A DNA stretch of 57,430 nucleotides from Candidatus Limnocylindrales bacterium (GTDB lineage: Bacteria; Chloroflexota; Limnocylindria; Limnocylindrales; CSP1-4). Position 1 is the first letter of the stretch, and each line of letters starts with the position of its first letter. The translations under genes and the position numbers were made by a program. The stretch covers positions 1 to 57,430 of the forward strand of contig DASWGY010000137.1 in the NCBI GenBank assembly GCA_036393495.1. Reading direction: 5' to 3'. The notes below the pieces were generated by a model. It did no database searches. It saw only the letters and a list, made by a program, of their open reading frames with translations, and was not told where the DNA came from. Of this stretch, positions 26,764 to 57,361 are shown piece by piece.

Positions 26764-26780
26764 GTACGATATCGTGATAC
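26764..26780. promoter_or_regulatory. GATATC-core motif; perfect 10-bp palindrome ACGATATCGT between divergent FAD-oxidoreductase and metallophosphoesterase genes
   Basis: GTACGATATCGTGATAC. It reads TATCGT on both strands. Confidence 0.6.
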
Positions 26781-26831
26781 GACACTGACGGGTGCCCGGC
26801 CACGGGCGGCGCGACCACGGAGGGACGAGCG

Positions 26832-27527
26832 ATGGTGCTGACCGAGCTCTTGATACCCGAGGATGCCATCGGCGGCGTCACCACGGTCGGGGCCCGACGG
26901 ATCGGTTTCCTGGGCGACGATCACAACGTCGAACAGGATGGCAGCGACCTCCCGGCCGAGGTCTTCGAGGCCTTCGCCGGGGTCGACCTCATCGTCCACC
27001 TCGGCCACATGGGCGTCCGCGACCAGCTGGCTCGCGGCGTCCTCGACCGCCTCGCCGGCCACGCGCCCATCCTGGCCGTTCGGGACGTCTCGACCGACCT
27101 CCAGGGTCAGCCGTACGTGACACCGGCGGAGGGTGATCGTGTCCGGGGGCTGACCCGGATCATCGAGGCCGGTGGTCTCCGGATCGGTGCCGTCCACAAC
27201 CTCGAGCGGCCGCCCGGGCCACCCATTCCGGCGCCGGCCGGCGGCATCCCGGCCTTCGCAGGCCTGGACGTCCGGGCAGTGCTCGAATCGAAGTTCGGGG
27301 GACCGGTCGATGTCGTGGCCTATGCCGGCACGCACCGACCGGTGGCGGTCAACGCCGGCGGCGTCCTGTTCGTCAACCCCGGCAGCCCGACCTGGCCGAA
27401 GGGCCCTGGTCGGGTAGCCGCCGAGCGGTCCCTCGGCACGGTCGGCATTCTGGAGGTCGGGGCGGGCGTCGCCTCGTTCGAGATCGTGGACCTCGGTCAC
27501 CTTGCCGCCGCGGCCGGCCGCGCGTGA
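26832..27527 (+). CDS. Metallophosphoesterase-fold protein (YfcE-like), motifs partly divergent
   Basis: RIGFLGDDHN, DLIVHLGH, AGTHRPV and VNPGSP line up with metallophosphoesterase motifs I-V but with substitutions. GGAGGG SD. Confidence 0.55.
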   Translation: MVLTELLIPEDAIGGVTTVGARRIGFLGDDHNVEQDGSDLPAEVFEAFAGVDLIVHLGHMGVRDQLARGVLDRLAGHAPILAVRDVSTDLQGQPYVTPAEGDRVRGLTRIIEAGGLRIGAVHNLERPPGPPIPAPAGGIPAFAGLDVRAVLESKFGGPVDVVAYAGTHRPVAVNAGGVLFVNPGSPTWPKGPGRVAAERSLGTVGILEVGAGVASFEIVDLGHLAAAAGRA

Positions 27528-28054
27528 GCGAGCTCGACGAGCTCCGTCTCGAGGTTCGCCGGCTGGCCGACCGGGAGTCCATTCGCGACGTCTTCACCCG
27601 GTTCGCTGCCGCCATGGACGGCCAGGATTGGGACCTCCTGGCGACCGTGTTCGCGGATGACGCCGTCTTCGATCACTCGGTCGAAGGCTGGAACGGGCAC
27701 GAATCGGCAGTCTGGACCGGGCAGTCCCGGATCCGGGCGGAAGTGGAAGCAGGCGCCGGGCGCCACTTCGCCTCGCACCACGTCATCACGAATCACCGGA
27801 TCGAGCTCGACGGCGATCGGGCCCGCGTCGTGGCCTACCTTCACTCGGTGCATCTGGACGACCCGCTCCGTCCCGACGTCCACGCCGATCACGGTGCCTG
27901 GTACCTGGCGGCGCTCGTTCGGCGCGCGGCCGGCTGGCGGATCTCGTGGCTGACCCACAAGAGTCTCTGGGCCGACCACGAGTACCAGCCTCCAGGTCCG
28001 GTGACGGATGCGGACCGACGGGCGATGCGGGAGCACGTCGCTCGCTCCACCTGA
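27524..28054 (+). CDS. SnoaL-like / NTF2-fold protein
   Basis: LADRESIRDVFTRFAAAMDGQDWDLLATVFADDAVFDHS is a typical SnoaL_4-type N-terminus. The GTG start overlaps the upstream stop (GTGA). Confidence 0.65.
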   Translation: MSELDELRLEVRRLADRESIRDVFTRFAAAMDGQDWDLLATVFADDAVFDHSVEGWNGHESAVWTGQSRIRAEVEAGAGRHFASHHVITNHRIELDGDRARVVAYLHSVHLDDPLRPDVHADHGAWYLAALVRRAAGWRISWLTHKSLWADHEYQPPGPVTDADRRAMREHVARST

Positions 28055-28102
28055 CCATCGCGCATCCGGCGGCCCGGCCGCTGGACAGGGGCCAGGCCAG
28101 GC

Positions 28103-29194
28103 TCAGTGGTCGCCGACGGTCGCGCCCTCCGGCCAATCGACCCCGACCGACCGTCCGAGCTCTCGTATGGCCTCGACTTTCGCTAGCGGGATCGGGATTC
28201 CATCCAGGCGTCGTCGTTCGGCAGTCTCGGCGCTTCGCTCGCCGGGGACGAACACTCGCGCTACACCCGGCGCGGGTGGCGAGGCATGGACCTGGTCGAT
28301 CAGATGCCTCACCCGGCTCTCGAAGGTCTCGATCGGCATCGAGATCCGCGGGTCGATCGCGATCAGGAAGAGGCTGACGCCCTGGGGCGTACCGCTGTCC
28401 ATCGGCTGGCCGACGTTCGGTGCGAAGAGCTCGCCGCCCGCAATAACGCCGGTCAGGACCTCGAGCATCAGGGCCAGGCCGTAGCCGCGGTGACCGCCCG
28501 CCGGGACCAGGAGTCCCGTCAGCCACGCCGCGGGATCGCGCGTCGGCCGGCCGCCAGCGTCGAACAGGACGCCCTCCGGCAGGAGCTCACCGCGCTCTCG
28601 AAGGGTGTCCATCTCGCCCGTCGACATGAGGGTCGTCGCCGAGTCGAAGACGAGCGGTGCGTAGGGTCCGGCCGAGCAGGCAATGGCGTGGGCCTGGTTG
28701 CCGAGGACGCGCCGCGTGCCGCCCCACGGCGCGGTGAGCGCCGGCCCGTTGGTGACGGCGAGGCCGATCATCCGGGCCTCCGCGGCGAGCCACGCGTAGT
28801 GGCCCATGGCCGCGGCCGAGCTGACATTGCAGATCGAGACCACACCGATCCCCGACTCGCGAGCTAGACCGATCGCGTGGCGCATGCCTCGACTCGCGGC
28901 GACCTGGCCCCAGCCCGTGTCGCCATCGAAGGCGGCGACGGCCGCGCGACTCCCGAGCGGGACCAGTCGGGCCCTTGGATCGGTTCCGCCAGCGCGAATC
29001 CGGGCAACACACTGGGGAAGCTTCGTACCGACGCCATGTGCCTCCAGGCCGCGGAGATCGGCCCATGCCATGGCGTCCGCAGCGAGCGACGCATCCTCCG
29101 CCGTCATGCCGACGGCCTCGAGGATGGCTGCGGCAAAGGCCCGCAGCGGCACGGCCTGGACCAGGATGGTCGACGGCGCGGCGGAGGCCATCAT
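28103..29194 (-). CDS. Ldh_2-family (malate/L-lactate/ureidoglycolate/Pyr2C-reductase type) protein, paralog 1 (last gene of operon)
   Basis: LRGLEAHGVG, LGNQAHAIA, FDSATTLMS, GGHRGYGLALMLEVLTGV and HASPPAPGVARVFVPGER are collinear with E. coli AllD-type proteins. The ATG at 29194 overlaps the upstream stop (ATGA). Confidence 0.85.
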   Translation of the reverse strand: MMASAAPSTILVQAVPLRAFAAAILEAVGMTAEDASLAADAMAWADLRGLEAHGVGTKLPQCVARIRAGGTDPRARLVPLGSRAAVAAFDGDTGWGQVAASRGMRHAIGLARESGIGVVSICNVSSAAAMGHYAWLAAEARMIGLAVTNGPALTAPWGGTRRVLGNQAHAIACSAGPYAPLVFDSATTLMSTGEMDTLRERGELLPEGVLFDAGGRPTRDPAAWLTGLLVPAGGHRGYGLALMLEVLTGVIAGGELFAPNVGQPMDSGTPQGVSLFLIAIDPRISMPIETFESRVRHLIDQVHASPPAPGVARVFVPGERSAETAERRRLDGIPIPLAKVEAIRELGRSVGVDWPEGATVGDH

Positions 29195-30096
29195 CCGGGG
29201 CCCGTCGCCTCGCCGTCGACCTGCGGCGAGGAGCTGGCGGCCGAGGCCTTCCAGGATCGCCACAGGGCGAGACGCTCGTCTGCTCGGAGGAGGCCGCAGG
29301 TGCGGCAGTACGCCTGGCGCCCAGGTACGACGTAGTTGATGCAGCAGATCCGGCGGACCTGGAGCGGACGCGGAAAGTCCGGGTCGTCGACGGTCTCCCA
29401 GGTGAGCAGGTCGAGCATCGGGTTGGGGCCGGGATGACCGGGCAGCCGTGGGCCAAAGAGGATGGCATCTCGATCCTCCGCCTGGGCGGCCTGTCGCGCC
29501 TGGTCGGGATCGTCGACCCCGTTCTCGTACAGCATGTCGATCTGCTCGGCGGCGGTCGACCAGAGGAGCTTCATCGAGACATGGGCCGTGGCGAGGATGC
29601 GCTCGAATGCCGGCGCGAGGTTGTCCCTGACCAGGCTCGTGAGGGCCTGGTCGCGCAGGACCCAGGCCGAGCCCGTGTCCTGCCCACCGAGGGGCCACCG
29701 AGTCGGCCGGTCGCCGGAGACGGCGACGGCGTCCGAATCCATCGACAGGACGACGCCCATCGGCATCTCGGTCCGGATCACGAAGGCGAGGCGGTCGAGC
29801 TGAACGTCCACCGCGACCCCGTGGGCGAGGGGAATGAGCGCCGCCGCGGCCACGGACCCGCAGTAGCGCCGGGCAAATCGTGACGCCGCTGCCCGGACGT
29901 CCTCGTCCTGCGGCCGGGCCGTCCACTCCAGAATGGCGCGGTTGAAGAAGTCGGGCAGACGGGCAGCCGACAGGAGCTCCTGGGCCGGCACGACTTCGCG
30001 GCCGGCCGGCGGTGCAAGGAAGATCGGGTAGGCGGCGCCGAACGGGCCGAACCGCCCGACTGCCTCGTCGATTGCGAGCTGGAGGTCCGCGGTCAT
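29191..30096 (-). CDS. FhuF-like (2Fe-2S)-binding protein (ferric-siderophore-reductase fold)
   Basis: C-terminal RICCINYVVPGRQAYCRTCGL gives C-C-x11-C-x2-C, like the FhuF C-terminal cluster motif. ATGA overlaps occur at both ends (30093-30096 and 29191-29194). Confidence 0.55.
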   Translation of the reverse strand: MTADLQLAIDEAVGRFGPFGAAYPIFLAPPAGREVVPAQELLSAARLPDFFNRAILEWTARPQDEDVRAAASRFARRYCGSVAAAALIPLAHGVAVDVQLDRLAFVIRTEMPMGVVLSMDSDAVAVSGDRPTRWPLGGQDTGSAWVLRDQALTSLVRDNLAPAFERILATAHVSMKLLWSTAAEQIDMLYENGVDDPDQARQAAQAEDRDAILFGPRLPGHPGPNPMLDLLTWETVDDPDFPRPLQVRRICCINYVVPGRQAYCRTCGLLRADERLALWRSWKASAASSSPQVDGEATGPG

Positions 30097-31166
30097 CGGT
30101 CGGGAAAGGACACGCCGAGTTCGGCGCCAAGCTTGGCCATGGCCGTCGCCTGGGGTGCCGGAATGGGGATGCCACCACGCTCGAACTCGACCGCGATCGA
30201 GTCTTTCCGCTCGCCGGGGACGCGAACCCTGGTCACGCCGGGTGCCGGCGGCGAGGCATGAACCTCGTCGATGAGCCGGTCGACCCTGGCCCGGAACTCG
30301 TCCGGTGGGAGGAAGCTGGCGGGGTCGAGCGCGAGCAGGAAGAGGCTGAGGCCCATCGCCTGGTCGAGGTGGTCCATGCCCACGATCTGGGTCGTCGTGC
30401 GGCCGCCGGACAGGACGCCGGTCAAGACTTCCCACAGGATGGCCAGGCCACCGCCCCGATGCCCGCCCATCGGCAGCAGCAGCAGGGTGTCCAGCGCTTC
30501 GGCAGCGTCGGTTGTCTCTCGTCCGTCGCGACCCAGGGCGACGCCCGGTGGGATCGGCTCGCCCCGCTCGCGGGCGGCCCGCATCAGGCCCATCGAGTAG
30601 GCGCTCGTCGACGAATCGAAGATGAGTGGCGGATGGTGGCCGGCGGGGGCACCGATGGCGAAGGCCTGGTTGCCGAGGAGCCGCTGCGAGCTGCCCCAGG
30701 GCGGCATGAGCGGAACCGAGTTCGTGATCGCCAGGCCGACGAGGCCCTCGCGGACCGCGAGCGCCGGGTAGTAGCCCATCGCGGCAGTCACATCACTGTC
30801 GCGAACGACGACGACACCGATCCCGACGGCCCGGGCCTTGTCGATCGCGAGTCGCATTCCACGACCACCGGCGACCGGCCCCCACCCGCCGGCGGCATCG
30901 AGAGAAGCCGTGGCCGCGGTTTCTCTGACCGGGGTCCAGTCGGCGTGGAGGGCGAGGCCGCCCCCGCGGGACCGTGCGGCGATCTGGAGCAGGCGGTTGG
31001 AGCCCGTCCCAAATGCCCCCCGAAGGTCGGAGTAGACCATCGCGTCGGCAGCGATCGCGGCGTCGTCGGCGGGCATTCCGAGGGCCTCGAGGACTGCCTC
31101 CGCGAAGGCCCGCAGGTCCGCAGCCAGGATGCGCCCCGGCGATGGGCGCGTCGTGGCCGGGCTCAC
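30093..31166 (-). CDS. Ldh_2-family protein, paralog 2
   Basis: LRGAFGTGSNRL, LGNQAFAIGAP, GGHRGGGLAILWEVLTGV, HASPPAPGVTRVRVPGER. The GTG at 31166 overlaps the upstream stop (GTGA). Confidence 0.8.
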   Translation of the reverse strand: MSPATTRPSPGRILAADLRAFAEAVLEALGMPADDAAIAADAMVYSDLRGAFGTGSNRLLQIAARSRGGGLALHADWTPVRETAATASLDAAGGWGPVAGGRGMRLAIDKARAVGIGVVVVRDSDVTAAMGYYPALAVREGLVGLAITNSVPLMPPWGSSQRLLGNQAFAIGAPAGHHPPLIFDSSTSAYSMGLMRAARERGEPIPPGVALGRDGRETTDAAEALDTLLLLPMGGHRGGGLAILWEVLTGVLSGGRTTTQIVGMDHLDQAMGLSLFLLALDPASFLPPDEFRARVDRLIDEVHASPPAPGVTRVRVPGERKDSIAVEFERGGIPIPAPQATAMAKLGAELGVSFPDR

Positions 31167-32266
31167 CAGGCCACCCCCAGCTCGGCCCCGAGCGACCGAA
31201 GCCGGGCGCTGAGCTCGGGCACAACCGGGACGCCTGTCCGCTCGCGCTCCGCTGCTAACGCGGCGGCCCGTTCGCCGGGGACGAGAACGGCCTGTACGCC
31301 GGCCATCGGAGGCGAGGCGTGAATCTGATCCACGAGGGTGTCGACGCGGGCCAGGAACCGCTCCCGCGGCAGCCAGGCCGATGGATCGAGCGCGAGCATG
31401 AAGTGGCTGACCGATTGGGATCGCGCGAGGTCGGCGATCGGAGTGATTTCGGATCCGAACCGGGCACCCCCAGACAAGACGCCGGTCAGGACAGCCCACA
31501 TCAACGACAACCCGAAGCCGCGATGACCGCCGATCGGCAGCAGGATTCCCGCGAGCGCCGCCGCGGGATCGATCGTTGGCGTGCCGGAGGCGTCAAGGGC
31601 GAGGCCCGCTGTCAGCGGCTCGCCACGGGCGATCAGGGCCTCGATGCCCGTCCAGGAGATGGCCGTCGTGGCTGAGTCGAAGATCACCGTCGGGCACCGG
31701 GCCGCCGGCGCCGCGATCGCGAAGGCCTGGTTGCCGAGGACGCGGGTTGTTCCGCCGTGAGGTGCCTGGAGGGGCGTCGTGTCGTTGATCGCCAGGCCGA
31801 CGAGGCCTTCGTCGGCGGCGAGGCTCGCGTACCAGCCCATGGCCGAGCCTGACGTGGTGTCCCGGACGACGACGATCCCCGCCCCCGTCGCGCGGGCCTT
31901 GACGATCGCAAGCCGCATCGCCCGCGTGCCTGCCACTTGGCCCCAGGCGCCCGCGGCGTTCAGGACGGCCGCAGCCGGCGTTTCGGCGACGACCCGGATT
32001 GCCGGAGCGGCCGGCGTTCCGCCGGCCCGGATCCGACCGACGAGGAGTGGCAGCTTGGCGATACCCTGGGCCGTGATCCCGCGGAGGTCGGCCCAGGCAA
32101 AGGCCGCGCCGACAGTCACCGCGTCGTCCTCCGGCATTCCGAGACGCTCGAGGACGGCGGCCACGAACGCCCGCAGACGGGCGGCGTCGATCAGCTCGTT
32201 CGGCTCGCTCACCCGGCGTTTGTCGGTACCCGTCCCAGACCGGTGTGCCGGCAGATCCTCGATCAT
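31163..32266 (-). CDS. Ldh_2-family protein, paralog 3
   Basis: LRGITAQGIAKL, LGNQAFAIAAP, GGHRGFGLSLMWAVLTGV, HASPPMAGVQAVLVPGER. ATG at 32266; GTG at 32212 is an alternative start. Confidence 0.8.
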   Translation of the reverse strand: MIEDLPAHRSGTGTDKRRVSEPNELIDAARLRAFVAAVLERLGMPEDDAVTVGAAFAWADLRGITAQGIAKLPLLVGRIRAGGTPAAPAIRVVAETPAAAVLNAAGAWGQVAGTRAMRLAIVKARATGAGIVVVRDTTSGSAMGWYASLAADEGLVGLAINDTTPLQAPHGGTTRVLGNQAFAIAAPAARCPTVIFDSATTAISWTGIEALIARGEPLTAGLALDASGTPTIDPAAALAGILLPIGGHRGFGLSLMWAVLTGVLSGGARFGSEITPIADLARSQSVSHFMLALDPSAWLPRERFLARVDTLVDQIHASPPMAGVQAVLVPGERAAALAAERERTGVPVVPELSARLRSLGAELGVAW

Positions 32267-32297
32267 GCCCGGCGCCCCCGACCCGAGCCCCGCCCGC

Positions 32298-33332
32298 TCA
32301 CAGCGTCAGCCCGAGGTCGGCGCCGATAGCCGTGAGACGCTCGTGAAGGGCGGCCCGGATCGGGATCCCGTCGCGCGCACGCTCGCGGGCGAGCGCGAAG
32401 CCTCGCTCGCCGGGCACCGTCACGCGCTCGACGCCAGGAGCCGGCGGCGAGGCGTGGATCTCGTCGATAAGCCGGTCGACTCGAGCTAGGAACTCTCCGA
32501 GGGGCTGGGCGAACTCAGGGTCGATGGCCATCAGGAACATGCTCACGGCCTGTGGCCGGTCGAGCTCGTCCGGCCCGGAGACCGCCGGGCCGTACCGCTC
32601 GCCACCCGCGAGGACGCCGGTGAGGACCTCCCACATGACCGCCAGTCCCGAGCCCCGGTGCCCGCCCATGGACCGAAGGATGCCGCTGAGCGCAACGTCA
32701 GGGTCGATGGTCGGCTGCCCGTCGGCGTCGAGCGCAACGTCCGGGGGGAGGGGTTCGCCACGGTCGCGGTACTCGTGGATTCGGGCGAGCGTGATCGCGG
32801 TCGTCGCCATGTCGAGCAGCAGTGGGTCATGGCGGCGGGCGGGGCAGGCGATGGCGAAGGCCTGGTTGCCGATGACCTTGGTCGTCCCTCCCCAAGGTGC
32901 CTGGAGCGGGGGCGAGTTGTTGATCGCCAGGCCGACCATCTTCTGGTCGGCGGCGAGGAGGGCGAAGTAGCCGAGCGGCCCTGCCGAGGTCGTGTTCCGG
33001 ACTGCTGCGACTCCGACGCCCGCCGAACGAGCCTGCCCGATGGCGTGACGCATCGCCCGGGCTCCGGCAATCTGGCCCCAGGTGTCGGCGGCGTCCAGCA
33101 CCGCGGTGGCATCCCGTTCGAGGACCTTCGTTCGCGCGCTTGTCGGGCTCGTCACGCCGGCCCGCAGGCGGCCCAGGTACTGCGGGATCTTCGCAACGCC
33201 AAGGGCACTGATCCCGCGGAGGTCGGACCACACGAGGACGTCGGTCAGCGCGGCCGCGTCGGCCCGGCTCATATCGGCCCGCTGGAAGACGGCCTCGGTA
33301 AAGGCTCGAAGGCGTTCGACCGGGACGCGCAT
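32298..33332 (-). CDS. Ldh_2-family protein, paralog 4
   Basis: LRGISALGVAKI, IGNQAFAIACP, GGHRGSGLAVMWEVLTGV, HASPPAPGVERVTVPGER. ATG at 33332 gives a family-typical N-terminus. The in-frame GTG at 33461 would overlap the upstream stop (GTGA) and add a 43-aa low-complexity extension. Confidence 0.8.
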   Translation of the reverse strand: MRVPVERLRAFTEAVFQRADMSRADAAALTDVLVWSDLRGISALGVAKIPQYLGRLRAGVTSPTSARTKVLERDATAVLDAADTWGQIAGARAMRHAIGQARSAGVGVAAVRNTTSAGPLGYFALLAADQKMVGLAINNSPPLQAPWGGTTKVIGNQAFAIACPARRHDPLLLDMATTAITLARIHEYRDRGEPLPPDVALDADGQPTIDPDVALSGILRSMGGHRGSGLAVMWEVLTGVLAGGERYGPAVSGPDELDRPQAVSMFLMAIDPEFAQPLGEFLARVDRLIDEIHASPPAPGVERVTVPGERGFALARERARDGIPIRAALHERLTAIGADLGLTL

Positions 33333-33457
33333 GGCCGGCGCGGCCGGGGCGCTCGTGCCTTCTTGTGTTCCGGCGCGACCAGCTCGCTCCGCGCCGGGCG
33401 AGCCCGGATCGCTGGTCGGCGTCGTTCCGCCGGGCGGGGCCGCGCCGCGCGCTCGAG

Positions 33458-34192
33458 TCACGCGGGTGTCCCGAAGGCCGTCCCCACGACCGCCTCGTGG
33501 GTCGCGATGACGAGCGTCGTGAGATCGAACACCGGCCGGCCCAGCGCCCGGCGAATGGCTGGCGCGTAGGGCGGAAAGTTCGTGCACTCGAGGACGAAGG
33601 CCCCGACGTCGGGGCTGCGGTCGACCACCCGAGCAGCGAGCGATACGAGCTCCGCCTCCAGGACCTCCCCGTCGGCCTCGGCACGACCCTCGAGGTACGT
33701 CTGGGCGAAGGTCGACTCCGGGGCCATGCCGCCGACCACGATGCGGAGGTCGCTCGACCTGAACCCGACGCCCTCGAATTGGGCTTCGGTCAGGTGAGGC
33801 TCGCTCATGGTGAGGATCCCGACGCTCCGATCGGGCCCGATCATCCGCGCCACGAGCGGGACCTGAAGGAGGGATGAGGACAGTACCGGTACGCTCACGG
33901 CGGCGGCCAGCTGTGGCTGAAACTGCGCGAGGAAGCCACAGCTCGTTGTGATCATCGGCACGCCCTCCTGCTCGAGCTCCCGGGCCGCGTCAACGAACTG
34001 GTCCCGGAGGGCGGAATCCGGGCGCTTTACGACGTATCCCGACGTCGCCCCGGGGACCACCCGGAAGCGAACCGGGAAGGGCCACGTGGCGGCATTGCCG
34101 ACGTCGCCGACGGGCCGCGGGAAGATCGTGTCGAGCATCAGGACCCCGAGCTCGTAGCCGTAGACGGTCCGACCGCCGGCGAGCGTCTGCAT
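33458..34192 (-). CDS. Asp/Glu/hydantoin-racemase-fold protein (two-cysteine type), copy 1
   Basis: ITTSCGFLAQFQ and VLECTNFPPY are the two conserved Cys positions of two-base racemases and isomerases. The start lies 5 nt after the AcnX small-subunit stop. Confidence 0.7.
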   Translation of the reverse strand: MQTLAGGRTVYGYELGVLMLDTIFPRPVGDVGNAATWPFPVRFRVVPGATSGYVVKRPDSALRDQFVDAARELEQEGVPMITTSCGFLAQFQPQLAAAVSVPVLSSSLLQVPLVARMIGPDRSVGILTMSEPHLTEAQFEGVGFRSSDLRIVVGGMAPESTFAQTYLEGRAEADGEVLEAELVSLAARVVDRSPDVGAFVLECTNFPPYAPAIRRALGRPVFDLTTLVIATHEAVVGTAFGTPA

Positions 34193-34197
34193 TCCGA

Positions 34198-35971: not shown

Positions 35972-35991
35972 CGATATCGTACACCGTTATC
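35972..35991. promoter_or_regulatory. GATATC-core motif pair (GATATC, then GTTATC 13 bp later) between the AcnX operon and the divergent racemase-like gene
   Basis: CGATATCGTACACCGTTATC. Confidence 0.55.
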
Positions 35992-38153: not shown

Positions 38154-38197
38154 GAACGGCACCTCGGTAGGGGTCGCGCCGGCGCCCGGGGGCTGAT

Positions 38198-38219: not shown

Positions 38220-38296
38220 CGATGTTATCATCGCCCGATCGTGGCTCAGTGGCGGCAGAATGCGTTCGCACCCACCCCGGACAGGAGGCCGATCGA

Positions 38297-39502: not shown

Positions 39503-39509
39503 CCGCAGC

Positions 39510-48684: not shown

Positions 48685-48694
48685 ACGATATCAT
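48685..48694. promoter_or_regulatory. GATATC-core motif between oppD-like and chrA
   Basis: ACGATATCAT reads TATCAT on the plus strand and TATCGT on the minus strand. Confidence 0.5.
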
Positions 48695-48735
48695 AGTCCG
48701 ACAACAGGTTGGAAACGGAATCGCGGGAGGGCGGC

Positions 48736-49998
48736 GTGTCGGACGAGGTGGTGGATCGCGACAATTCGGGGCATTCCGGGCTGACAGAAGACGTCGCCTC
48801 GCAGATGCCCCACGGACCGGCCGCGCTCCTCGAGATCCTGCTCGTTGCCCTTCGCCTGGGGCTGACCTCGTTCGGGGGCCCGATCGCGCACCTCGGCTAC
48901 TTCAAGACCGAATACGTCGATCGGCGCCGGTGGCTCGATGCGGCAGTCTTCGCCGACCTCGTGGCGATTGCACAGTCGCTGCCCGGCGCTGCGAGCAGCA
49001 AGCTCGGGATCTCGATCGGGATCCTGCGCGGCGGCCTCGTCGGTGGCATCGCCGCCTGGATCGGCTTCACCCTTCCGTCCGCGCTCGCCCTGATCGCCTT
49101 CGCGATCGGGTCCCAGGCGCTCGGGTCCGAGGCCGACGGATGGATCCACGGACTCCAGGTCGTGGCCGTCGCGGTCGTCGCACTGGCCGTCTGGAGCATG
49201 GCTCGAAGTCTCACGCCCGATCGTCAGCGGGCGACGATCGCGATCATCGCCGCTGTCATCTCGCTGGCCGTGCCGACAACCGTCACGACGGTCACCTTGA
49301 TCGTCGTCGGTGGAGTCGTGGGTTGGCGGCTGCTGGGGAGCGATGGTGAGGGCGCCGGTGTCGCCGTCCACGTACGGATCAGCCGGCGGACCGGCCTCAT
49401 CGCCGGATCCCTGTTCGTCGGCCTGCTCGTCGGCCTGCCGCTGGCTCGCTCCGCGGTCGACAGCCAGCCGATTGCCCTCTTCGACAGCTTCTATCGTGTC
49501 GGCGCGCTGGTCTTTGGTGGCGGCAATCTCGTGCTGCCCCTGCTCCAGCCGGAAGTCGTGCCACCGGGCTGGGTGACGAATGACCAGTTCCTCGCCGGAT
49601 ACGGCGCGGCCCAGGCTGTTCCGGGCCCCCTCTTCACGTTCGCCGCATTCATCGGCGCCGCGGCGGTCCCGGAGCCGAACGGCCTTGCCGGGGGCACGCT
49701 CGCGATCCTCGCGATCTTCCTGCCGTCGTTCCTGCTGACCGTCGCCGCATTGCCGTGGTGGAGCGAGCTCCGGGCTCGCCAGGACGTCCGCGCAATCCTT
49801 CGGGGGGTGAACGCCACCGTCGTCGGCGTCCTCCTCGCTGCCCTCTATCACCCGGTGGCCACGAACGCCCTCAGTGAGCCTCGAGACGCCGCGCTCGCGC
49901 TCGCCTCATTCGGGCTGCTCGCCATCTGGAAGATGCCACCGTGGATCGTCGTGGTCGCGACGGCTGCCGGCGGGGCGTTACTCGAGGCGATCGCCTGA
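48736..49998 (+). CDS. chrA: Chromate transporter ChrA (two CHR domains)
   Basis: LRLGLTSFGGPIAHLGYF, and the second half FGGGNLVLPLLQ. The start is uncertain: GTG at 48736 after GGGAGGG, the track's TTG at 48709, or ATG at 48805. Confidence 0.8.
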   Translation: MSDEVVDRDNSGHSGLTEDVASQMPHGPAALLEILLVALRLGLTSFGGPIAHLGYFKTEYVDRRRWLDAAVFADLVAIAQSLPGAASSKLGISIGILRGGLVGGIAAWIGFTLPSALALIAFAIGSQALGSEADGWIHGLQVVAVAVVALAVWSMARSLTPDRQRATIAIIAAVISLAVPTTVTTVTLIVVGGVVGWRLLGSDGEGAGVAVHVRISRRTGLIAGSLFVGLLVGLPLARSAVDSQPIALFDSFYRVGALVFGGGNLVLPLLQPEVVPPGWVTNDQFLAGYGAAQAVPGPLFTFAAFIGAAAVPEPNGLAGGTLAILAIFLPSFLLTVAALPWWSELRARQDVRAILRGVNATVVGVLLAALYHPVATNALSEPRDAALALASFGLLAIWKMPPWIVVVATAAGGALLEAIA

Positions 49999-50063: not shown

Positions 50064-51383
50064 TCAGGCGCCGCCGGCCACGACCTGTCCGCCCTTGACG
50101 ACGCACTGCGGTCGGGTGAGGGCCTCGAGGTCTGACAGCGGATCGTCGGTCGTCGCGACGAGATCGGCCAGGTGCCCAGGCTCGAGGACACCCAGGTCGT
50201 CCGCTGCCCCGAGCGCTTCGGCCGCAACGATCGTGCCCGCCTGGATCGCCTGCCACGGCGACATGCCGGCTTCACCCATCTTCGCGAACTGGCCCGCGTT
50301 CTCGCCGTGCGGGAAGACTCCGGCATCTGTTCCAAAGGCCATCCGGACGCCGAGGCGCAATGCAAGGCCGACGGTCGCAACCTTGGCCCGAGTCACCTGG
50401 ACGTTCCGCTCGATGACCTCGTCCGACCAGCCGAAGGACCGTGATCTGGCATCGATCCAGGGTCCGCTGTAGAGGTCGGTGACGAGGTACGTGCCGGCAG
50501 CCGCGAGAGCCTCGAGGGCCGGCTCAGACGCATACGTCCCGTGCTCGATCGTCCGAACGCCTGCCCTCGCGGCGACCAGCATGCCCTGGCTGCCATGCGC
50601 CGCCGCCGCCACCGGTAGCCCGCGGCGCGACGCCGCCTCGACGACCGCCGCCACGAGCTCCGGTGAGAGCTCGAGACGATCCGGGTCGGTCGGCCGGGCG
50701 ACGACACCGCCACCGGTGACGATGATCTTGACGAGGTCCGCGCCTTCCCTCGCCAGGTCGTTGACGACCCGCCGCGCGTCCGCGACGCTGCCGATGATGC
50801 CCCGCCGTAGTGGGTCGCGAGCGCCGGCAGCGCCCGCCGGTCCCCGACGCGCGGTGCCGGACATCGCGCCCGGACGCGGCCCCGCTGCCGCTTCCGGGTC
50901 GGCCCCGCCGCCCGCCGCCGTGACGTAGACCCCGGCGCACAACATGCGTGGACCGGGAACCAGGCCGACCTCGATCCCATCGCGTAGCCGGATGTCCGCA
51001 AAGGCGCGGACCGTCCCGACGTCGCGGACGGTGGTGAACCCGGCGGCGAGCGTCGCTCGGGCATTGGCGACACCGTGGAGCAGGTCGAGCTCGGGCGGGT
51101 CGTCGGGTGGGGTGACGCCACCGGAGGCCACCCCTCCGATGAGATGGACGTGGCAGTCGATGAGCCCGGGCAGGACCGTGAGGGCGCTGAGGTCGAGAGT
51201 TCGGTCGTGGTCGGGCTCCGGGTCGCCGCTCGGGATGACCGCTGCGATCCGGTCGCCGTGGACGAGGATCGCCGCCCGGTCCAGGACGCTGGCAGCCCGG
51301 ACGTCGAGGAGGCGGCCGGTCCGGATGAGGACTCGCAATTCGGGCACCTTCGCCCGGCCGGGATTGGGGTCGGTGGTTGACAC
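50064..51383 (-). CDS. Metal-dependent amidohydrolase (imidazolonepropionase/prolidase-like)
   Basis: VLPGLIDCHVHL is the HxH metal motif, with later AAAHG..., IEHGT and FGTDAG blocks. GTG start after GGAGGGAG. Confidence 0.8.
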   Translation of the reverse strand: MSTTDPNPGRAKVPELRVLIRTGRLLDVRAASVLDRAAILVHGDRIAAVIPSGDPEPDHDRTLDLSALTVLPGLIDCHVHLIGGVASGGVTPPDDPPELDLLHGVANARATLAAGFTTVRDVGTVRAFADIRLRDGIEVGLVPGPRMLCAGVYVTAAGGGADPEAAAGPRPGAMSGTARRGPAGAAGARDPLRRGIIGSVADARRVVNDLAREGADLVKIIVTGGGVVARPTDPDRLELSPELVAAVVEAASRRGLPVAAAAHGSQGMLVAARAGVRTIEHGTYASEPALEALAAAGTYLVTDLYSGPWIDARSRSFGWSDEVIERNVQVTRAKVATVGLALRLGVRMAFGTDAGVFPHGENAGQFAKMGEAGMSPWQAIQAGTIVAAEALGAADDLGVLEPGHLADLVATTDDPLSDLEALTRPQCVVKGGQVVAGGA

Positions 51384-51426
51384 GCGGCCTTTGCTCCCTC
51401 CGTTCCCTGGTCGGCGATGTCAGACG

Positions 51427-51436
51427 ACGATATCGT
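51427..51436. promoter_or_regulatory. Perfect palindrome ACGATATCGT between divergent amidohydrolase and amidase genes
   Basis: The 10-mer is identical to the one at 26766-26775. Confidence 0.6.
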
Positions 51437-51486
51437 AGACTGATCGTCAGATCGCGGCGAACGCGGATCTCCGACGGAGGGCCCCG

Positions 51487-52869
51487 ATGGAGGCGTCGAT
51501 CTTCGACTCGGTCGAGGCCCAGCGGTTGGCAATCGCCGAACGACGGCTGGAGCCTGGCAGGCTCATGAGCGCCACCCTCGAACAGATCGAGCGGCTCGAT
51601 CCGACGTTGCGGTCCTTTGTCGCAATCACCGCGACGAGTGCGCGGCGCGAGGCAGACGCGGCCGATCGTCGCGCTCGCGCCAGTGAGTCGGTCGAGCCGC
51701 TGCTCGGGATCCCGTTCGGGGTCAAGGACAACATCGACGCCGCCGGCTGGCCGACAACGGCAGCCTCCAGCTTCCTGCGCTCGAACGTCGCGGCCGAGGA
51801 CGCGACGGTCGTCGCCCGGTTGCGGGCCGCTGGGGCCATTCTCGTCGGCAAGCTCAACATGCACGAGTTCGCTTCGGGCGTGACGAGCGAGAGCGAGGAC
51901 TTCGGGACCGTCCAGAACCCCTTCGACCGGGACCGGATCCCGGGCGGCTCGAGCAGCGGCAGCGCGGTCGCGGTGGCGACCGGCCAGGTCGCCTTCTCGC
52001 TCGGAACGGACACGGGTGGCTCGGTCCGGATCCCCGCCGCGCTGTGCGGTGTCGTCGGCCTCAAGCCGACGACCGGCCGTGTCCCGACCCGTGGCGTCGT
52101 GCCCTGGAGCTGGGTCCTCGATCACGTCGGGCCGCTGACCCGAACGGTGCGGGATGCGGCGCTCGTGCTCAGCTCGATCGCCGGGTTCGATGTCGGCGAC
52201 CCGGCGACTCTCGACCACCCGGTCGACGAGTACCTCGCGGGCATTGACGGTGGCGTCGAAGGCCTCGAGCTCGCGATCCCTCGGTCGTTCCTGGGCGACG
52301 TCGAGCCCGCGGTCGGGGCGATCGTGGACGACGCGATCCGGGGCCTCGTCGACGCCGGTGCCCGGCTGCATGAGGTGGACTGGCCCGAGATCGGGGCGTC
52401 CGTGGACGTCCACCGGGTCATCGTCGATGCCGATCTCGCCGCCTTCCAGCGAGACCGCTTTGGCGAGGCGCCCGAGCGTTTCAGCGCCGACCTCCGGGCC
52501 AGACTCGTGCGGGGCACGGCCCGCTCCGGCTCCGAGGTAGCCGTGGCCCGGCGGACACAGCTGGCGATGACCCGCCAGGTCGACCTGCGCCTCGCGGAGA
52601 TCGACGCCCTCGTCCTTCCAACCGTTCCGATCGTCGCCCCGCGGCGAGCGGGGCTCGACGGCGCAAGAGCCTCCGAGATGCTCGCGTCGCTGGTCCGGCC
52701 GTTCAGCCTCTTCGGGACTCCCGCGATCAGCCTGCCAGTCGGCGACGTGGCCGGCCTGCCCGTCGGCCTCCAGATTGTCACCGCCCGGTGGACCGAAGCG
52801 AGGCTGCTCCGGATCGCGCGGGCAGTCGAGCGGCAGGTGTCCTGGCAGCCCCGAACGTTCGGGACCTGA
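51487..52869 (+). CDS. Amidase-signature family amidase
   Basis: GGSSSGSAVAVATGQVAFSLGTDTGGSVRIPAALCGVVGLKPT is the amidase signature with the Ser-cisSer-Lys context. GGAGGG SD. Confidence 0.9.
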   Translation: MEASIFDSVEAQRLAIAERRLEPGRLMSATLEQIERLDPTLRSFVAITATSARREADAADRRARASESVEPLLGIPFGVKDNIDAAGWPTTAASSFLRSNVAAEDATVVARLRAAGAILVGKLNMHEFASGVTSESEDFGTVQNPFDRDRIPGGSSSGSAVAVATGQVAFSLGTDTGGSVRIPAALCGVVGLKPTTGRVPTRGVVPWSWVLDHVGPLTRTVRDAALVLSSIAGFDVGDPATLDHPVDEYLAGIDGGVEGLELAIPRSFLGDVEPAVGAIVDDAIRGLVDAGARLHEVDWPEIGASVDVHRVIVDADLAAFQRDRFGEAPERFSADLRARLVRGTARSGSEVAVARRTQLAMTRQVDLRLAEIDALVLPTVPIVAPRRAGLDGARASEMLASLVRPFSLFGTPAISLPVGDVAGLPVGLQIVTARWTEARLLRIARAVERQVSWQPRTFGT

Positions 52870-52925
52870 GATCCAGCGACGGCGAGCCGGATCGCCCGCG
52901 CCAGTAGCAGGAGGAGGTAACAGAC

Positions 52926-53408: not shown

Positions 53409-53440
53409 GGTATCGGCTCGTGATACCATCCGCCGATATC
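53409..53440. promoter_or_regulatory. Three phased hexamers GGTATC-N7-GATACC-N7-GATATC upstream of dppB-like
   Basis: GGTATCGGCTCGTGATACCATCCGCCGATATC. The first two hexamers form an inverted repeat. Confidence 0.55.
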
Positions 53441-53487: not shown

Positions 53488-54480
53488 ATGATTCGGTATC
53501 TCCTTCGCAGGTTCGGCCTGGCGCTCCTGACGATCTGGGCGATCTCGATGGTCGCCTTCCTGATCATCCAGCTGCCCCCCGGCGACTACATCACGACGTA
53601 CATCTCAAGGCTCGGTGAGGCCGGAACCAGCACCTCGGAGCAGCAACTCGCCATCCTGCGCGAGCAGTACGGGCTGGACCAGCCCCTCTGGGTCCAGTAC
53701 GGGAAATGGATGAGCCTCGTCCTCCAGGGCCAGTTCGGTCTGTCGCTCCTGTACGTCCGGCCGGTGGCCGATGTCGTCGGCGAGCGTCTGGCCCTGACGA
53801 TGGTGGTCTCGATCGCCGCCCTGGCGTTCACCTGGATCCTGGCGATCCCGATCGGGATTTATTCGGCGGTGCGGCAGTACTCGATCGGGGACTATGTCTT
53901 CACGATCGTCGGCTTCATCGGCCTCGCCGTACCGAGCTTCCTGCTGGCCCTGGTCCTCCTGTACCTCTCGTTCGTCTACTTCGGGGCGAACATCGGCGGC
54001 CTGTTTTCGCCCGAGTTCGAGGATGCGCCGTGGTCGGTCGCGAAGCTCATGGACCTTCTCGGCCACCTGCCGATCCCGGCCCTCGTCCTGGGCAGCGCGG
54101 GGACGGCACAGCTCGTCCGCGTCCTTCGGGCGAACCTCCTCGACGAGCTGCGAAAGCCCTACGTCACGACGGCCCGGGCCAAGGGACTCTCCGAGCAGGT
54201 CCTCATTTCGAAGTACCCGGTCCGGGTCGCCCTGAACCCGTTCGCGAGCACGATCGGCTTCGTCTTTCCGACCATCGTGTCGGGCTCGATCATCATCTCG
54301 ACGGTCCTCAGCCTGCCGACGGTCGGGCCGGTCCTCCTGGCGGCGCTGCAGGCACAGGACATGTTCCTGGCCGGCGCGATCGTCCTGCTCCTCGGCGTCA
54401 TGACGGTCATCGGAACCTTCGTCTCCGATCTCATCCTGGCCTGGCTCGACCCTCGGGTCCGGCGAGCCAGAGCCGCGTGA
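53488..54480 (+). CDS. Peptide/nickel-type ABC transporter permease (DppB/OppB-like)
   Basis: MIRYLLRRFGLALLTIWAISMVAFLIIQLPPGDY is a typical N-terminus, with the EAA-like loop YVTTARAKGLSE. Confidence 0.9.
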   Translation: MIRYLLRRFGLALLTIWAISMVAFLIIQLPPGDYITTYISRLGEAGTSTSEQQLAILREQYGLDQPLWVQYGKWMSLVLQGQFGLSLLYVRPVADVVGERLALTMVVSIAALAFTWILAIPIGIYSAVRQYSIGDYVFTIVGFIGLAVPSFLLALVLLYLSFVYFGANIGGLFSPEFEDAPWSVAKLMDLLGHLPIPALVLGSAGTAQLVRVLRANLLDELRKPYVTTARAKGLSEQVLISKYPVRVALNPFASTIGFVFPTIVSGSIIISTVLSLPTVGPVLLAALQAQDMFLAGAIVLLLGVMTVIGTFVSDLILAWLDPRVRRARAA

Positions 54481-54490
54481 GGAACGGCCG

Positions 54491-55666
54491 ATGACCCAAC
54501 TGCTGGCGAGCCTGCCGGGCGATGACCACGACGTGGGAGTGACGGCCACGGGTGCAGCCTTGGTCGAGACATCTGGAGCCGAGGAGCAGATCTCGGTCGC
54601 CTCCCAGTGGCGCCTGATGTGGTGGCGGTTCAGGAAGCACAAGCTGGCGCTGCTTGGGGCGATCGTCGTGGCGTTGTTCTACGTGGCGGCGCTCGGGGCG
54701 GATTTCTTCGCTTACTCGAACCCCTACGACTCGGGCTCGGTCCGGGCCAACGTGCCGCCTCAGCCGATCTACTTCTTCGACAACGGCGAGTTCGGCCCGT
54801 TCGTCTACGGGTTGAAGCGGGAACGGGACACGGCCACGCTCAAGCTCATCTATACAGCCGACCCGAGCGTAAAGATTCCGCTCCAGTTCTTCGCCAAGGG
54901 GTTCGAGTACGACTTCCTCGGCATCTTCCCCGCGGACGTCCACATCATCGGTCCCGTGGATGGCGCGGCCGAGGAGACGATCTACCTGCTCGGAACCGAC
55001 ATCCAGGGTCGAGACCTGTGGTCGCGGATCATGTTCGGGACCCGAACATCGCTCACCATCGGCCTCGCCGGGGTGTTGCTGAGCCTCGTCCTCGGCGTCG
55101 TGCTAGGGGGTATCTCCGGGTTCTTCGGAGGTTGGGTGGACACGCTCATCCAGCGTCTCATCGAGATCATCCGGTCGGTCCCGGTGATCCCCCTCTGGCT
55201 CGGTCTGACGGCCGCGATGCCGAAGGACTGGGACATCCTCCTCGTCTACTTCTTCATCACGATCATCATCTCGTTCATCGGCTGGACCGAGCTGGGGCGC
55301 GTCGTCCGAGGTCGGTTCCTCGCCCTCCGCCACGAGGACTTCGTGGCGGCTGCCGAGCTCGCCGGCAGCAGCACCCGGCGGATCATCTTCGTCCACATGC
55401 TGCCGCTGTTGACGAGCCACATCATCGCGGCCACCACCCTGGCCCTGCCGGTCATGATCATCAGCGAGACGTCGCTGAGCTTCCTTGGCCTCGGGCTCCG
55501 TATCCCGGCGATCTCGTGGGGGACCCTCCTTCATGACGCCCAGAACGTCCAGGCCCTCGCGATCACCCCGTGGCTGCTGATCGTTGCCATTCCGGTGATC
55601 GTCGCGATCCTGGCCTTCAACCTCTTCGGTGACGGGCTCCGCGACGCTGCGGACCCGTACGCCTGA
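54491..55666 (+). CDS. Peptide/nickel-type ABC transporter permease (DppC/OppC-like) with long N-terminal extension
   Basis: LGTDIQGRDLWSRIMFGTRTSL, the EAA-like loop FVAAAELAGSSTRRI and ISWGTLL. Confidence 0.85.
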   Translation: MTQLLASLPGDDHDVGVTATGAALVETSGAEEQISVASQWRLMWWRFRKHKLALLGAIVVALFYVAALGADFFAYSNPYDSGSVRANVPPQPIYFFDNGEFGPFVYGLKRERDTATLKLIYTADPSVKIPLQFFAKGFEYDFLGIFPADVHIIGPVDGAAEETIYLLGTDIQGRDLWSRIMFGTRTSLTIGLAGVLLSLVLGVVLGGISGFFGGWVDTLIQRLIEIIRSVPVIPLWLGLTAAMPKDWDILLVYFFITIIISFIGWTELGRVVRGRFLALRHEDFVAAAELAGSSTRRIIFVHMLPLLTSHIIAATTLALPVMIISETSLSFLGLGLRIPAISWGTLLHDAQNVQALAITPWLLIVAIPVIVAILAFNLFGDGLRDAADPYA

Positions 55667-55689
55667 GCCACACAGGGCGACCTTCGGAC

Positions 55690-56130
55690 GTGCACGGGGA
55701 CGACGAGACGGACCGGCCCGGCCGAACGCCGCTGCGGATCCCGGGGACGGATCCCGCCCCGTCGTACTCGCCCGCGATCGCAGCCGACGGCTTCGTGTTC
55801 ATTTCAGGCCAGCTGGGGCTCGACCCGGAGACCGAGGTCATGGCCGACGGCGTCGAGGCCCAGGCGGCCCAGGCCCTCGAGAACGTCGCCTCGCTCCTGG
55901 CGGTCGCGGGACTGTCGCTCTCCGACCTCGTCAGGACGACCGTCCTCCTGACCCGAATGGAGGATGGCGCGGCCGTCGCGGCCGTTTGCAGCCGCCATCT
56001 GTCCGAGCCACGGCCCGCCCGGTCGATGTATGCCGTGGCCGCCCTACCGAGGGGCGCTCTCGTGGAGATCGATGGGATCGCGATCCGGCCGTCCGCAAGC
56101 AATCGGCGCGATCGGTCGACGAGCCGCTAG
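55690..56130 (+). CDS. RidA/YjgF-family reactive-intermediate (enamine/imine) deaminase
   Basis: YSPAIAADGFVFISGQLGLDPE..., and the C-terminal PARSMYAVAALPRGALVEIDGIA. GTG start. Confidence 0.85.
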   Translation: MHGDDETDRPGRTPLRIPGTDPAPSYSPAIAADGFVFISGQLGLDPETEVMADGVEAQAAQALENVASLLAVAGLSLSDLVRTTVLLTRMEDGAAVAAVCSRHLSEPRPARSMYAVAALPRGALVEIDGIAIRPSASNRRDRSTSR

Positions 56131-57320
56131 ACGAGGTCCTCCGGCCGGATCAGCTCGACGTCGTCGGTCGGCGGCTCAAGCCGGTAGGCCGACAGGAACT
56201 TGGCGCCGGTACGGGTGCAGTCCCCGTTGCAGGGGCACTCGGGGGCGTTTACGGCATAGCTCGGCACGAAGTACTTGTGGGCAAGTTGGAGGGCCTCCTC
56301 CTCCGAGATCCCCCATGACGACCACTGGGGTCGCGACGCCTCCGCGACCTTCACGGGGTCACCGAGGCGCCAGAGCATCGAGAACCGATCCGGGACCGAG
56401 ATCCCGAGGGCCATCGCCACGATCGAGATGTAGTGACGGATCGCGAGCCGCTCGCTCGCGAACTTGCCGAGCTCCCGGGTACAGCCGTGATAGAGCGTGA
56501 CGATCGCGTCGGCGCCAGCGTCTGCGACGTAGGCCTCGAGTGCGGACTGGGCGTCGAGGTACTCCTGGGTTCCGATCGTTGCCAGTCGCGGTCCCGCGTT
56601 GTCGCACAGTCCGAGGGTGGGCGTCTCGGCAAGCCCGATGACCTCGACGCCCGGGACGCGCCGGAGCAGGTCCATCGCGACCGGCGGATGGGCATCGCGG
56701 ACGCGGTGCTCGCCAAGGTGGCCGTGGACGAGGACCTTTGTCGGGACCGACGTCTGCCATGGCGTCGCCGACCCGAGCGCGTCGAGGCGACGAATGAGGA
56801 AGGACGCCAAGCCCGTGCTCTTGAAGTCGATCCCGACCTCCGGCTCAACGACGTCCGAGAATTGCATCTCGCACGCCGAGCACCACTGGATCGCCGTGCG
56901 CGGGGCGTAGGAGGCCATGCGCTTGACCGACGAGCGGACGACCTGGCGCGCCGCGTCGTGGAGGCCGTTGTTGCTGTAGGGCTTGCCGCAGCAGAATTGC
57001 TGCCCAGCGACGGCTGCGAAGTCGACGCCGAGGGCTTCGAAGACGGCCACAGCCTCCCGCATCAGGTGCGGCGTCTGGCGAACATTGCAGCCGAAGTTGA
57101 GCAGGACGTCGACCGGCCGCTCAGGGGCGGTGTGGCGTTCTGTCCAAGCTGATTCATCGCGCGAGACCTGGAGGTGCTCGCGCTCGATCATCGTTCGGTA
57201 GAAGGCAGGGTACGCGAAATCCGTCTTGGTCGGCCCGTCCTCTGGCATGGTCGGTTCGTCGGGGTTCAGCGAGGTCACCGAGCGCACAGGAGGCCCGGGG
57301 ATGGTGGCGTCGGTTGTCAT
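56127..57320 (-). CDS. CCG-domain (HdrB/GlcF/LutA-like) Fe-S oxidoreductase subunit
   Basis: The first CCG domain is complete (NFGC...FCCGKPY...WCSAC). The second is degenerate (GLCDNAG...YHGCT). ATG at 57320 lies 7 nt after a TATCAT box, so the gene may be leaderless. Confidence 0.7.
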   Translation of the reverse strand: MTTDATIPGPPVRSVTSLNPDEPTMPEDGPTKTDFAYPAFYRTMIEREHLQVSRDESAWTERHTAPERPVDVLLNFGCNVRQTPHLMREAVAVFEALGVDFAAVAGQQFCCGKPYSNNGLHDAARQVVRSSVKRMASYAPRTAIQWCSACEMQFSDVVEPEVGIDFKSTGLASFLIRRLDALGSATPWQTSVPTKVLVHGHLGEHRVRDAHPPVAMDLLRRVPGVEVIGLAETPTLGLCDNAGPRLATIGTQEYLDAQSALEAYVADAGADAIVTLYHGCTRELGKFASERLAIRHYISIVAMALGISVPDRFSMLWRLGDPVKVAEASRPQWSSWGISEEEALQLAHKYFVPSYAVNAPECPCNGDCTRTGAKFLSAYRLEPPTDDVELIRPEDLV

Positions 57321-57326
57321 GAGATC

Positions 57327-57361
57327 GATGATATCACGATGTGATATCACTGTCCGATATC
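57327..57361. promoter_or_regulatory. Three GATATC hexamers at exact 13-bp spacing upstream of the CCG-protein gene
   Basis: GATGATATCACGATGTGATATCACTGTCCGATATC. It contains the palindromes TGATATCA and GTGATATCAC. Confidence 0.6.

Follow-up and report, generated by a model that had tools for sequence, protein, structure and literature searches.

Phased GATATC hexamers as probable operators of a short Rv3488/ChrI-like PadR regulator in a catabolic gene block of an uncultured Limnocylindrales bacterium

We analyzed a 57,430-nt stretch of DNA from a Candidatus Limnocylindrales bacterium (contig DASWGY010000137.1; "the window" hereafter means this whole stretch), in which the hexamer GATATC marks the promoter regions of a block of some 31 kb (26723-57430). 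We propose that these hexamers are probably the operator half-sites of a short PadR-family repressor of the Rv3488/ChrI subfamily. The motif is phased, conserved, and linked to this subfamily in both directions, from arrays to PadR genes and from PadR genes to arrays. Because this two-way comparative evidence ties exactly the Rv3488/ChrI-like subfamily to GATATC-type hexamers, the copy encoded in the block (44256-44582, minus strand, 108 amino acids) would be the likeliest binder and is the proposed cognate repressor. PadR repressors with operators are a known kind of system. The operator code appears to be undescribed: no description of 13-bp-phased GATATC operators was found in the literature searched, which did not cover the 2018 Rv3488 paper.

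An exact search of the window found 15 GATATC hexamers, 13 of them intergenic and two in coding sequences, on a gene map built from third-position GC content, Pfam matches, and the gene calls of the source contig (ENA ERZ27256803 k141_2121085, 58,641 bp). This contig was identified through the PadR protein described below, whereas an exact look-up of the MttB protein matched no contig. A sequence-only reading of the same DNA had reported these 15 sites and their division between nine intergenic promoter regions and two coding sequences. The exact search agrees with it, except that the site placed at 38198 lies at 38208. The same reading had expected only three or four occurrences from mononucleotide frequencies; 100 dinucleotide shuffles gave 7.1 +/- 3.0, and one of the 100 reached at least 15. 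The total is thus only mildly high, about 2.6 standard deviations above the shuffles. The strong signal is the location of the hexamers, because the total is marginal but the intergenic bias is extreme: 13 of the 15 fall in the intergenic 9% of the window (Fisher odds ratio 69, p = 1.3e-12). Hexamers of the same composition are intergenic in 11.6% of cases, against 87% for GATATC. The most intergenic-enriched hexamers of the window are GATATC itself and the overlapping ATATCG, ATATCA, and ACGATA, which rank above the Shine-Dalgarno word. All nine promoter-bearing gaps of the block contain the motif, as had been claimed for every region from the FAD oxidoreductase gene to the right edge, and a gap-by-gap check found it in none of the 12 gaps of positions 1-23555, again as first read. 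Within the block, the short same-strand gaps at 44583-44698 and 52870-52925 are without it. The related GGTATCGT that had been noted upstream of the MttB gene at 23540 does exist, but it is a solitary hexamer, one of the window's 210 with a single mismatch, and lacks a phased partner; it does not support including the MttB gene in the regulon.

A feature missed by that reading is the phasing of the hexamers. Allowing at most one mismatch per hexamer, nine pairs lie at exactly 13 bp from start to start, against about one at each other distance. Pairs at this spacing matching at least 10 of 12 positions number 13, when simulations give 0.96 (simulated maximum 3), and all except one are inside the nine gaps. 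Triples matching at least 14 of 18 positions number six, against 0.13 simulated. The layout is hexamer-N7-hexamer, with two to four units per array in the window. Could the composition of AT-rich intergenic DNA, or the spread of a small mobile repeat, produce such a pattern by itself? The marginal total would fit chance, which is effectively refuted by the intergenic share relative to same-composition hexamers and by the excess of phased pairs. As for a mobile repeat, the longest sequence common to the nine regions is about 20 bp around the motif, and therefore the motif is not such an element. We give this explanation, in either form, the least credence of all those considered here.

GATATC is also a known restriction-modification target (EcoRV-type), and it could have been purged from genes while being kept or methylated in certain gaps. 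The presence of just two sites in coding sequences would agree with this, but rare AT-ending codons suffice to explain the low count where the GC content is 70%. Avoidance cannot yield a 13-bp phasing, degenerate partners such as GATGTC and GTTATC, or a linkage to PadR, and no methyltransferase or endonuclease gene was seen among the window genes scanned. This makes restriction-modification a highly improbable origin of the pattern.

Which protein could read such arrays? The PadR protein is the only regulator found among the block genes scanned, as the sequence-only reading had observed. It matches Pfam PF03551 with 68 bits, for a cutoff of 27, over residues 53-123 of the long open reading frame (ORF). 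With 108 residues and an end-to-end alignment to M. tuberculosis Rv3488 (residues 2-103 to 7-108 of structure 5ZHC), it belongs to the short PadR subfamily 2, whose members have about 110 residues and one C-terminal helix only. Rv3488 is also its closest solved structure (5ZHC, E 2e-26, full length), and the two proteins share the signatures H-x-L-H-H-A and SPGTLYPxLH. The latter, a recognition-helix segment, is almost invariant in an alignment of the PadR subfamily, in keeping with a conserved DNA word. The canonical DNA-binding residues of PadR proteins are two tyrosines, with which helices 2 and 3 begin, and a basic residue in the wing (PMC5728393). Candidates for these residues are Y24, present in our protein, and, in the subfamily alignment, the invariant Y45 and the nearly invariant R69. 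The classic PadR half-sites (ATGT-N8-ACAT or CNTGNA-N6-TNCANG) do not occur in the block promoters, whose sites are of the form GATATC-N7-GATATC.

The link between arrays and PadR genes was established in both directions. The forward scan used only the DNA pattern GATATC-N7-GATATC-N7-GATATC on 185,579 genomes, one per species, and returned 120 loci, many of them simple tandem repeats with a 13-bp period. When these loci were searched by tblastn with the PadR protein of the window, 17 proved to have a full-length homologue (39-56% identity, E 1e-18 to 1e-36) whose start is some 15-230 bp away from the array; in one more locus (L076), the homologue is at a distance of 2.3 kb. The 17 loci come from Firmicutes (Clostridium, Lachnoclostridium, and others), Atribacterota, Acidobacteria (Bryobacterales), Actinomycetota (an Acidimicrobiales metagenome-assembled genome, MAG), and Archaea (Methanobacterium and a member of the Geothermarchaeales). 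With a profile built from the array-linked PadR proteins, about eight further, weaker PadR-like genes were detected beside arrays, some of them in Thermoplasmata. Outside the phylum of our bacterium, the genes downstream of array-linked PadRs are mostly exporters: ChrA, RND outer-membrane factors, a FetAB-like ABC pair, and a Na/Ca-exchanger-like protein. Other candidate binders, suggested by the shapes of their sites, were considered and dismissed: LysR, GlnR/PhoP-type direct-repeat regulators, Lrp, and ribbon-helix-helix proteins are neither encoded in the block nor recurrent beside arrays. We also dismissed an apparent location of arrays inside a conserved ORF of uncultured Actinomycetota MAGs, which reflects over-long ORF calls in high-GC DNA; in the one such locus read in detail (L006), the array lies between divergent starts.

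The reverse test started from 78 metagenome loci chosen by homology to the PadR subfamily alone, scoring the 200 bp upstream of the gene and using other windows of the same loci as controls. An exact GATATC lies upstream of 42% of the PadR loci, against 5.2% of the controls; the frequencies are 28% and 0.7% for a phased pair matching at least 11 of 12 positions, and 42% and 0.44% for a phased triple matching at least 15 of 18. The arrays follow the consensus wATATC-N7-rATATC-N7-GwTAwC; the spacer is AT-rich and resembles gaaattc, and in low-GC hosts such AT-rich spacers are the tendency. Many of these loci have a canonical promoter, TTGACA-N17-TATAAT, whose -10 box abuts or is overlapped by the first hexamer, and their last hexamer touches the start codon. 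This association runs against the earlier decision to set the PadR protein aside in favor of a factor encoded outside the window.

These promoters also bear on another explanation, that GATATC(G/A)T is the generic -10 element of the organism, since TATCGT and TATCAT fit TANNNT. In the window, most flanking genes have a single TANNNT word within 150 bp upstream, which overlaps a hexamer, and the distances to the start codons suit a -10 position. Yet the 12 intergenic regions of the first 23.5 kb are all without the motif, and neither a 13-bp phasing nor triple arrays are properties of a -10 box. Furthermore, the Firmicutes and metagenome arrays sit beside separate canonical TATAAT boxes, and the motif follows a single regulator family through phyla whose promoter usage is unrelated. 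We consider a generic -10 element very unlikely. A related reading, in which some hexamers would be the -10 boxes of leaderless transcripts (an ATG follows 6-9 nt past some of them, at 45656 and 42881), was rejected: gene calls and Shine-Dalgarno sequences put the starts downstream, at 45607 and 42834. The gene encoding a CCG-domain protein (start at 57320) alone keeps an ATG just after the hexamer.

The motif is also conserved among close relatives. We compared contigs encoding PadR proteins 74-79% identical to ours, i.e., three relatives represented by four loci (L126, L130, and L133/L134). The conserved core includes PadR, a convergent MFS gene, a divergent molybdopterin oxidoreductase gene, and sometimes then ChrA. 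Among relatives, ChrA lies either beside PadR (L126 and L069) or behind the molybdopterin oxidoreductase (L133). The gap between the MFS and oxidoreductase genes carries the motif in L130 and L133/L134, as it does in the window (site 4 below). L126 has a phased pair in the gap between the oxidoreductase and an aminotransferase, and the relatives also carry the motif upstream of an aminotransferase gene. A site upstream of the Opp permease, equivalent to our site 8, is present in L126 and L133. All 10 exact GATATC hexamers within 20 kb of L126 are intergenic. In L130 the motif is directly upstream of PadR; an operator-like array in the regulator's own promoter is found in this relative and in the 17 pattern-selected loci. 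Conservation in orthologous regions, an intergenic and phased placement, and the absence of any longer shared repeat all favor the earlier proposal that one kind of transcription factor ties the block together through these operators.

Some observations weigh against assigning the sites to the PadR protein of the block. At several sites of the window, one hexamer is perfect but its partners are weak. The top NCBIfam match of the protein, the Rv3488 family NF053635, scores 109.9 bits, below the curated cutoff of 140, and by sequence comparison the protein is classed as a relative of Rv3488, not an equivalog. The 116-bp gap directly upstream of its gene (44583-44698) has no site. In the reverse test, an upstream array is missing from most PadR homologues of high GC content. 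The pattern scan also found two groups of arrays with no strong homologue of our PadR within their 8-kb loci: conserved 13-bp-phased TGATATCA arrays in Bosea/Rhizobiales (L007, L023, L046, L088, L109, and L110), and an array common to Bacillus spizizenii and B. inaquosorum (L035, L062, L108, and L115). Either group could belong to a regulon whose regulator gene is distant, or be recognized by a different factor. Finally, L126 encodes two paralogues of the subfamily 9 kb apart (1026-1421 and 10001-10375), which are 58% and 79% identical to our PadR, and each adjoins GATATC sites. This suggests a duplication, with possible cross-talk, within the lineage.

The sites of the window could thus be operators for a protein encoded elsewhere, either a PadR-subfamily paralogue or an unrelated factor, with the local PadR controlling part of them or none. 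The window shows only 57 kb of the genome and, given the two paralogues of L126, an unseen paralogue in the host genome could bind some or all of the sites; the lack of a site in the gap upstream of PadR points the same way. Against this, the association between the subfamily and the arrays holds in both directions and across phyla, and no unrelated factor family recurs beside arrays. The local PadR gene lies amid the sites, downstream of an array-bearing promoter, and within a conserved, motif-carrying core with the MFS and molybdopterin oxidoreductase genes. On balance, we find an outside factor unlikely, if less so than the explanations discussed above. Returning to the PadR protein of the block as the probable binder, the absence of a site in its own gap means that autoregulation would need cotranscription or read-through from the promoter of the upstream gene, an F420-dependent LLM oxidoreductase. 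The site upstream of that gene (site 5) is a possible autoregulatory site.

How would the repressor use such arrays? From the sequence patterns, we infer binding, its stoichiometry, and repression rather than activation. Each PadR dimer would bridge two hexamers with starts 13 bp apart (6-7-6). Since GATATC is self-complementary, each hexamer could serve as either half-site, and two, three, four, or even five units could be chained. Arrays of two to four hexamers could hold one or two dimers; a triple could be occupied by a pair of dimers or by a single dimer in either of two registers. An AT-rich spacer would suit contacts by the wings. The arrays overlap the only -10-like words and the lone predicted promoter lies inside site 9, which leads us to infer repression by promoter occlusion: the bound repressor would block RNA polymerase over the -10 region in the nine gaps, and thereby up to 17 transcription units, until a ligand releases PadR from the operator. 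The link to ChrA and the conserved H-x-L-H-H-A segment hint, speculatively, at an oxyanion or a metal as the effector.

The named relatives of the protein offer useful comparisons. In the chromate-efflux operon chrIA1 of Bacillus cereus SJ1, the PadR-family gene chrI and chrA1 are chromate induced, and the paper defines no operator (He et al. 2010, PMC2936356); no description of a ChrI operator was found in the literature searched. ChrI is, like our PadR, a short protein (about 100 residues) of the same subfamily, and array-linked homologues beside chrA (L090 and L093) are about 48-52% identical to ours. The window also has a ChrA gene with the motif in its promoter. The organization differs, however: padR and chrA share an operon in Bacillus, whereas the ChrA gene of the window is 4 kb from PadR and on the other strand, and the motif covers about 16 further transcription units, among them those for the catabolism of amino acid derivatives, peptide ABC transport, a molybdopterin oxidoreductase, and an F420-dependent LLM protein.

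The padR-chrA pairing also occurs on plasmids. A tblastn search with our PadR matched 1,818 plasmid records, mostly from Klebsiella and Escherichia; the few inspected have padR beside chrA, and every plasmid padR-chrA operon inspected shows the motif. It takes the form AATATC-N7-AATATC in Hydrogenophaga, GATATT-N7-GATATT in B. cereus, and a GATATC-centered palindrome in S. haemolyticus. In an E. coli IncF plasmid (NZ_CP068333; L223 1181-1225), a TATATC is followed by four GTTATC-gaatttc units with a 13-bp period, upstream of chrA-padR. This is a clinical multidrug resistance plasmid, with the context sul1-chrA-padR-IS6100-mphR(A).

In M. tuberculosis, Rv3488 is preceded, like its Streptomyces orthologues, by TAGAmT-N8-GCCGATATCGG, and in the Rv3488 promoter the GATATC core is just past the TAGAAT box. 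Rv3488 and these orthologues have a single GCCGATATCGGC palindrome, whereas the window has multihexamer arrays. Rv3488 reportedly binds Cd and other metals. No Rv3488 operator was found in the literature searched, the 2018 Biochem J paper on Rv3488 being outside that coverage. Another GATATC and its phased partner occupy a divergent gap between SDR and DoxX genes (L219 1035-1053), two genes from Rv3488. A DoxX gene is likewise the neighbor of a PadR gene of this family on a Streptomyces plasmid.

The PadR proteins with characterized operators differ from ours in instructive ways. The crystal structure of B. subtilis PadR with DNA shows one dimer on two 6-bp repeats separated by a 6-bp spacer (Park et al. 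2017, PMC5728393), its recognition helices entering consecutive major grooves while the wings occupy minor grooves (PMC5728393). It is a winged-helix dimer that represses, is released by a ligand, and reads two 6-bp elements, and we propose the same for the PadR of the window. The geometry of the sites matches as well, 6-6-6 in its padC operator and, with one more base, 6-7-6 in our arrays. Yet B. subtilis PadR is of the long, two-domain type and ours is of the short one, and its half-site is CNTGNA, where ours is a self-complementary GATATC chained into phased arrays. The ATGT-N8-ACAT operators of the LmrR-type PadRs also have a different half-site. In C. difficile, the short cdPadR1 has two sets of inverted repeats in its own promoter, needs their AT-rich spacer, and has many predicted genomic sites (PMC5050560). 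A multipromoter regulon under a short PadR has a precedent in this protein, although its motif (TACT-N11-12-AGTA), its subfamily, and its flexible spacing differ from those described here.

The nine gaps of the block serve up to 17 transcription units, about 38 genes. At least one of the start codons flanking each gap is 45-90 nt downstream of the hexamers, and the starts are preceded by Shine-Dalgarno sequences. In the GC-rich gaps, almost every TANNNT word (TATCGT, TATCAT, or TACGAT) overlaps a hexamer. Site 1 (26768-26786), a tacGATATCgtg core with the weak phased hexamer GACACT, lies between a DAO-type FAD oxidoreductase gene (25418-26716, minus strand) and a Metallophos/SnoaL gene (26832-28054, plus strand). 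Its core is 52 nt upstream of the TTG start of the former and 59 nt upstream of the ATG of the latter, and TATCGT/TACGAT are the only TANNNT words in the vicinity. The long ORF of the oxidoreductase (25418-26884) is too long; a GGAGG at 26733-26737 precedes the TTG at 26716, its likely start, and this leaves the GATATC at 26768 intergenic. Site 2 (35973-35991), GATATC-N7-GTTATC, matches 11 of 12 positions and separates an AcnX operon (28103-35897, minus strand) from a second Asp/Glu-racemase-like gene (36045-36782, plus strand). The operon behind this site is unusually dense in Ldh_2 (malate/L-lactate dehydrogenase family) paralogues, with four in tandem, and also encodes the large and small AcnX subunits, an FhuF-like ORF, and a first Asp/Glu-racemase-like protein. 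Site 3 (38195-38226), GATGAC-N7-GATATC-N7-GATGTT (14 of 18), is between a PrpD-like gene (36816-38153, minus strand) and the genes for a DapL-like aminotransferase and a DapF-like epimerase (38297-40328, plus strand). Site 4 (42882-42906), GATGTC-g-GATATC-GATATC-GTATAC, is between the molybdopterin oxidoreductase gene (40294-42834, minus strand) and that of the MFS transporter (42987-44231, plus strand).

Moving rightward, site 5 (45664-45682) is a perfect GATATC-N7-GATATC pair (12 of 12) between orf156 (45738-46208, plus strand) and the F420-dependent LLM oxidoreductase gene (44699-45607, minus strand), after which PadR comes next on that strand. Site 6 (48687-48705), gacGATATCata-N-GACAAC (10 of 12), lies between genes for OppD/F-type ATPases (46310-48555, minus strand) and ChrA (48736-49998, plus strand), 49 nt upstream of the start of the latter, which passes TIGR00937. 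Site 7 (51416-51447), GATGTC-N7-GATATC-N7-GATCGT (14 of 18), separates an amidohydrolase gene (50064-51383, minus strand) from an amidase gene (51487-52869, plus strand) that is accompanied by orf135. Site 8 (53409-53440), GGTATC-N7-GATACC-N7-GATATC (16 of 18), is upstream of a single unit encoding two ABC permeases and RidA (53488-56130, plus strand). Site 9 (57330-57361) is a perfect triple, GATATC-acgatgt-GATATC-actgtcc-GATATC (18 of 18), between the CCG-domain gene (56127-57320, minus strand) and a right-edge gene without identification that starts near 57422 on the plus strand. A promoter scan of 38.1-57.4 kb predicted one sigma-70-like promoter only, and it is wholly within site 9: CGGACA-17-TATCAT with a TG (57328-57356, minus strand), 7 nt before the ATG of the CCG-domain gene.

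The earlier description of this block as a catabolic supercluster is fair for its gene content. We tentatively suggest, as a scenario with a little less than an even chance of being right, that a short PadR, of a kind that ordinarily acts locally on a single efflux gene, was recruited as the master repressor of a set of up to 17 units over about 31 kb for the catabolism and transport of nitrogen-rich compounds, in an uncultured, high-GC, F420-using bacterium, while keeping an operator code shared from Archaea to M. tuberculosis and clinical padR-chrA plasmids. For a short PadR, a predicted regulon of this size is unusual, but many sites are also predicted for cdPadR1, which gives a precedent. 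For the host, this predicts that about 38 genes answer one signal, including those for hydroxyproline-type and amide catabolism, the peptide ABC transporter, the molybdopterin oxidoreductase, ChrA, and the F420-dependent oxidoreductase. Such a shared signal would leave fewer candidate substrates for this gene cluster, which is difficult to interpret by other means. More generally, our results give a testable DNA target to a widespread and poorly characterized PadR subfamily that includes Rv3488. A defined operator could allow regulon prediction in any genome with such a PadR and provide parts for chromate or metal biosensors.

Two minor features of the block are worth mentioning. Its Opp/Dpp-type ABC transporter is split, with the ATPases (46310-48555, minus strand) 5 kb from the permeases (53488-55666, plus strand) on opposite strands; both halves are behind GATATC sites, and no substrate-binding protein gene is present within the window. 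An exact 12-mer, CGACACTGACGG, is found twice, at 26780-26791 and 57402-57413, each time downstream of a GATATC and shortly upstream of a plus-strand start. It could be due to chance or be a second shared element.

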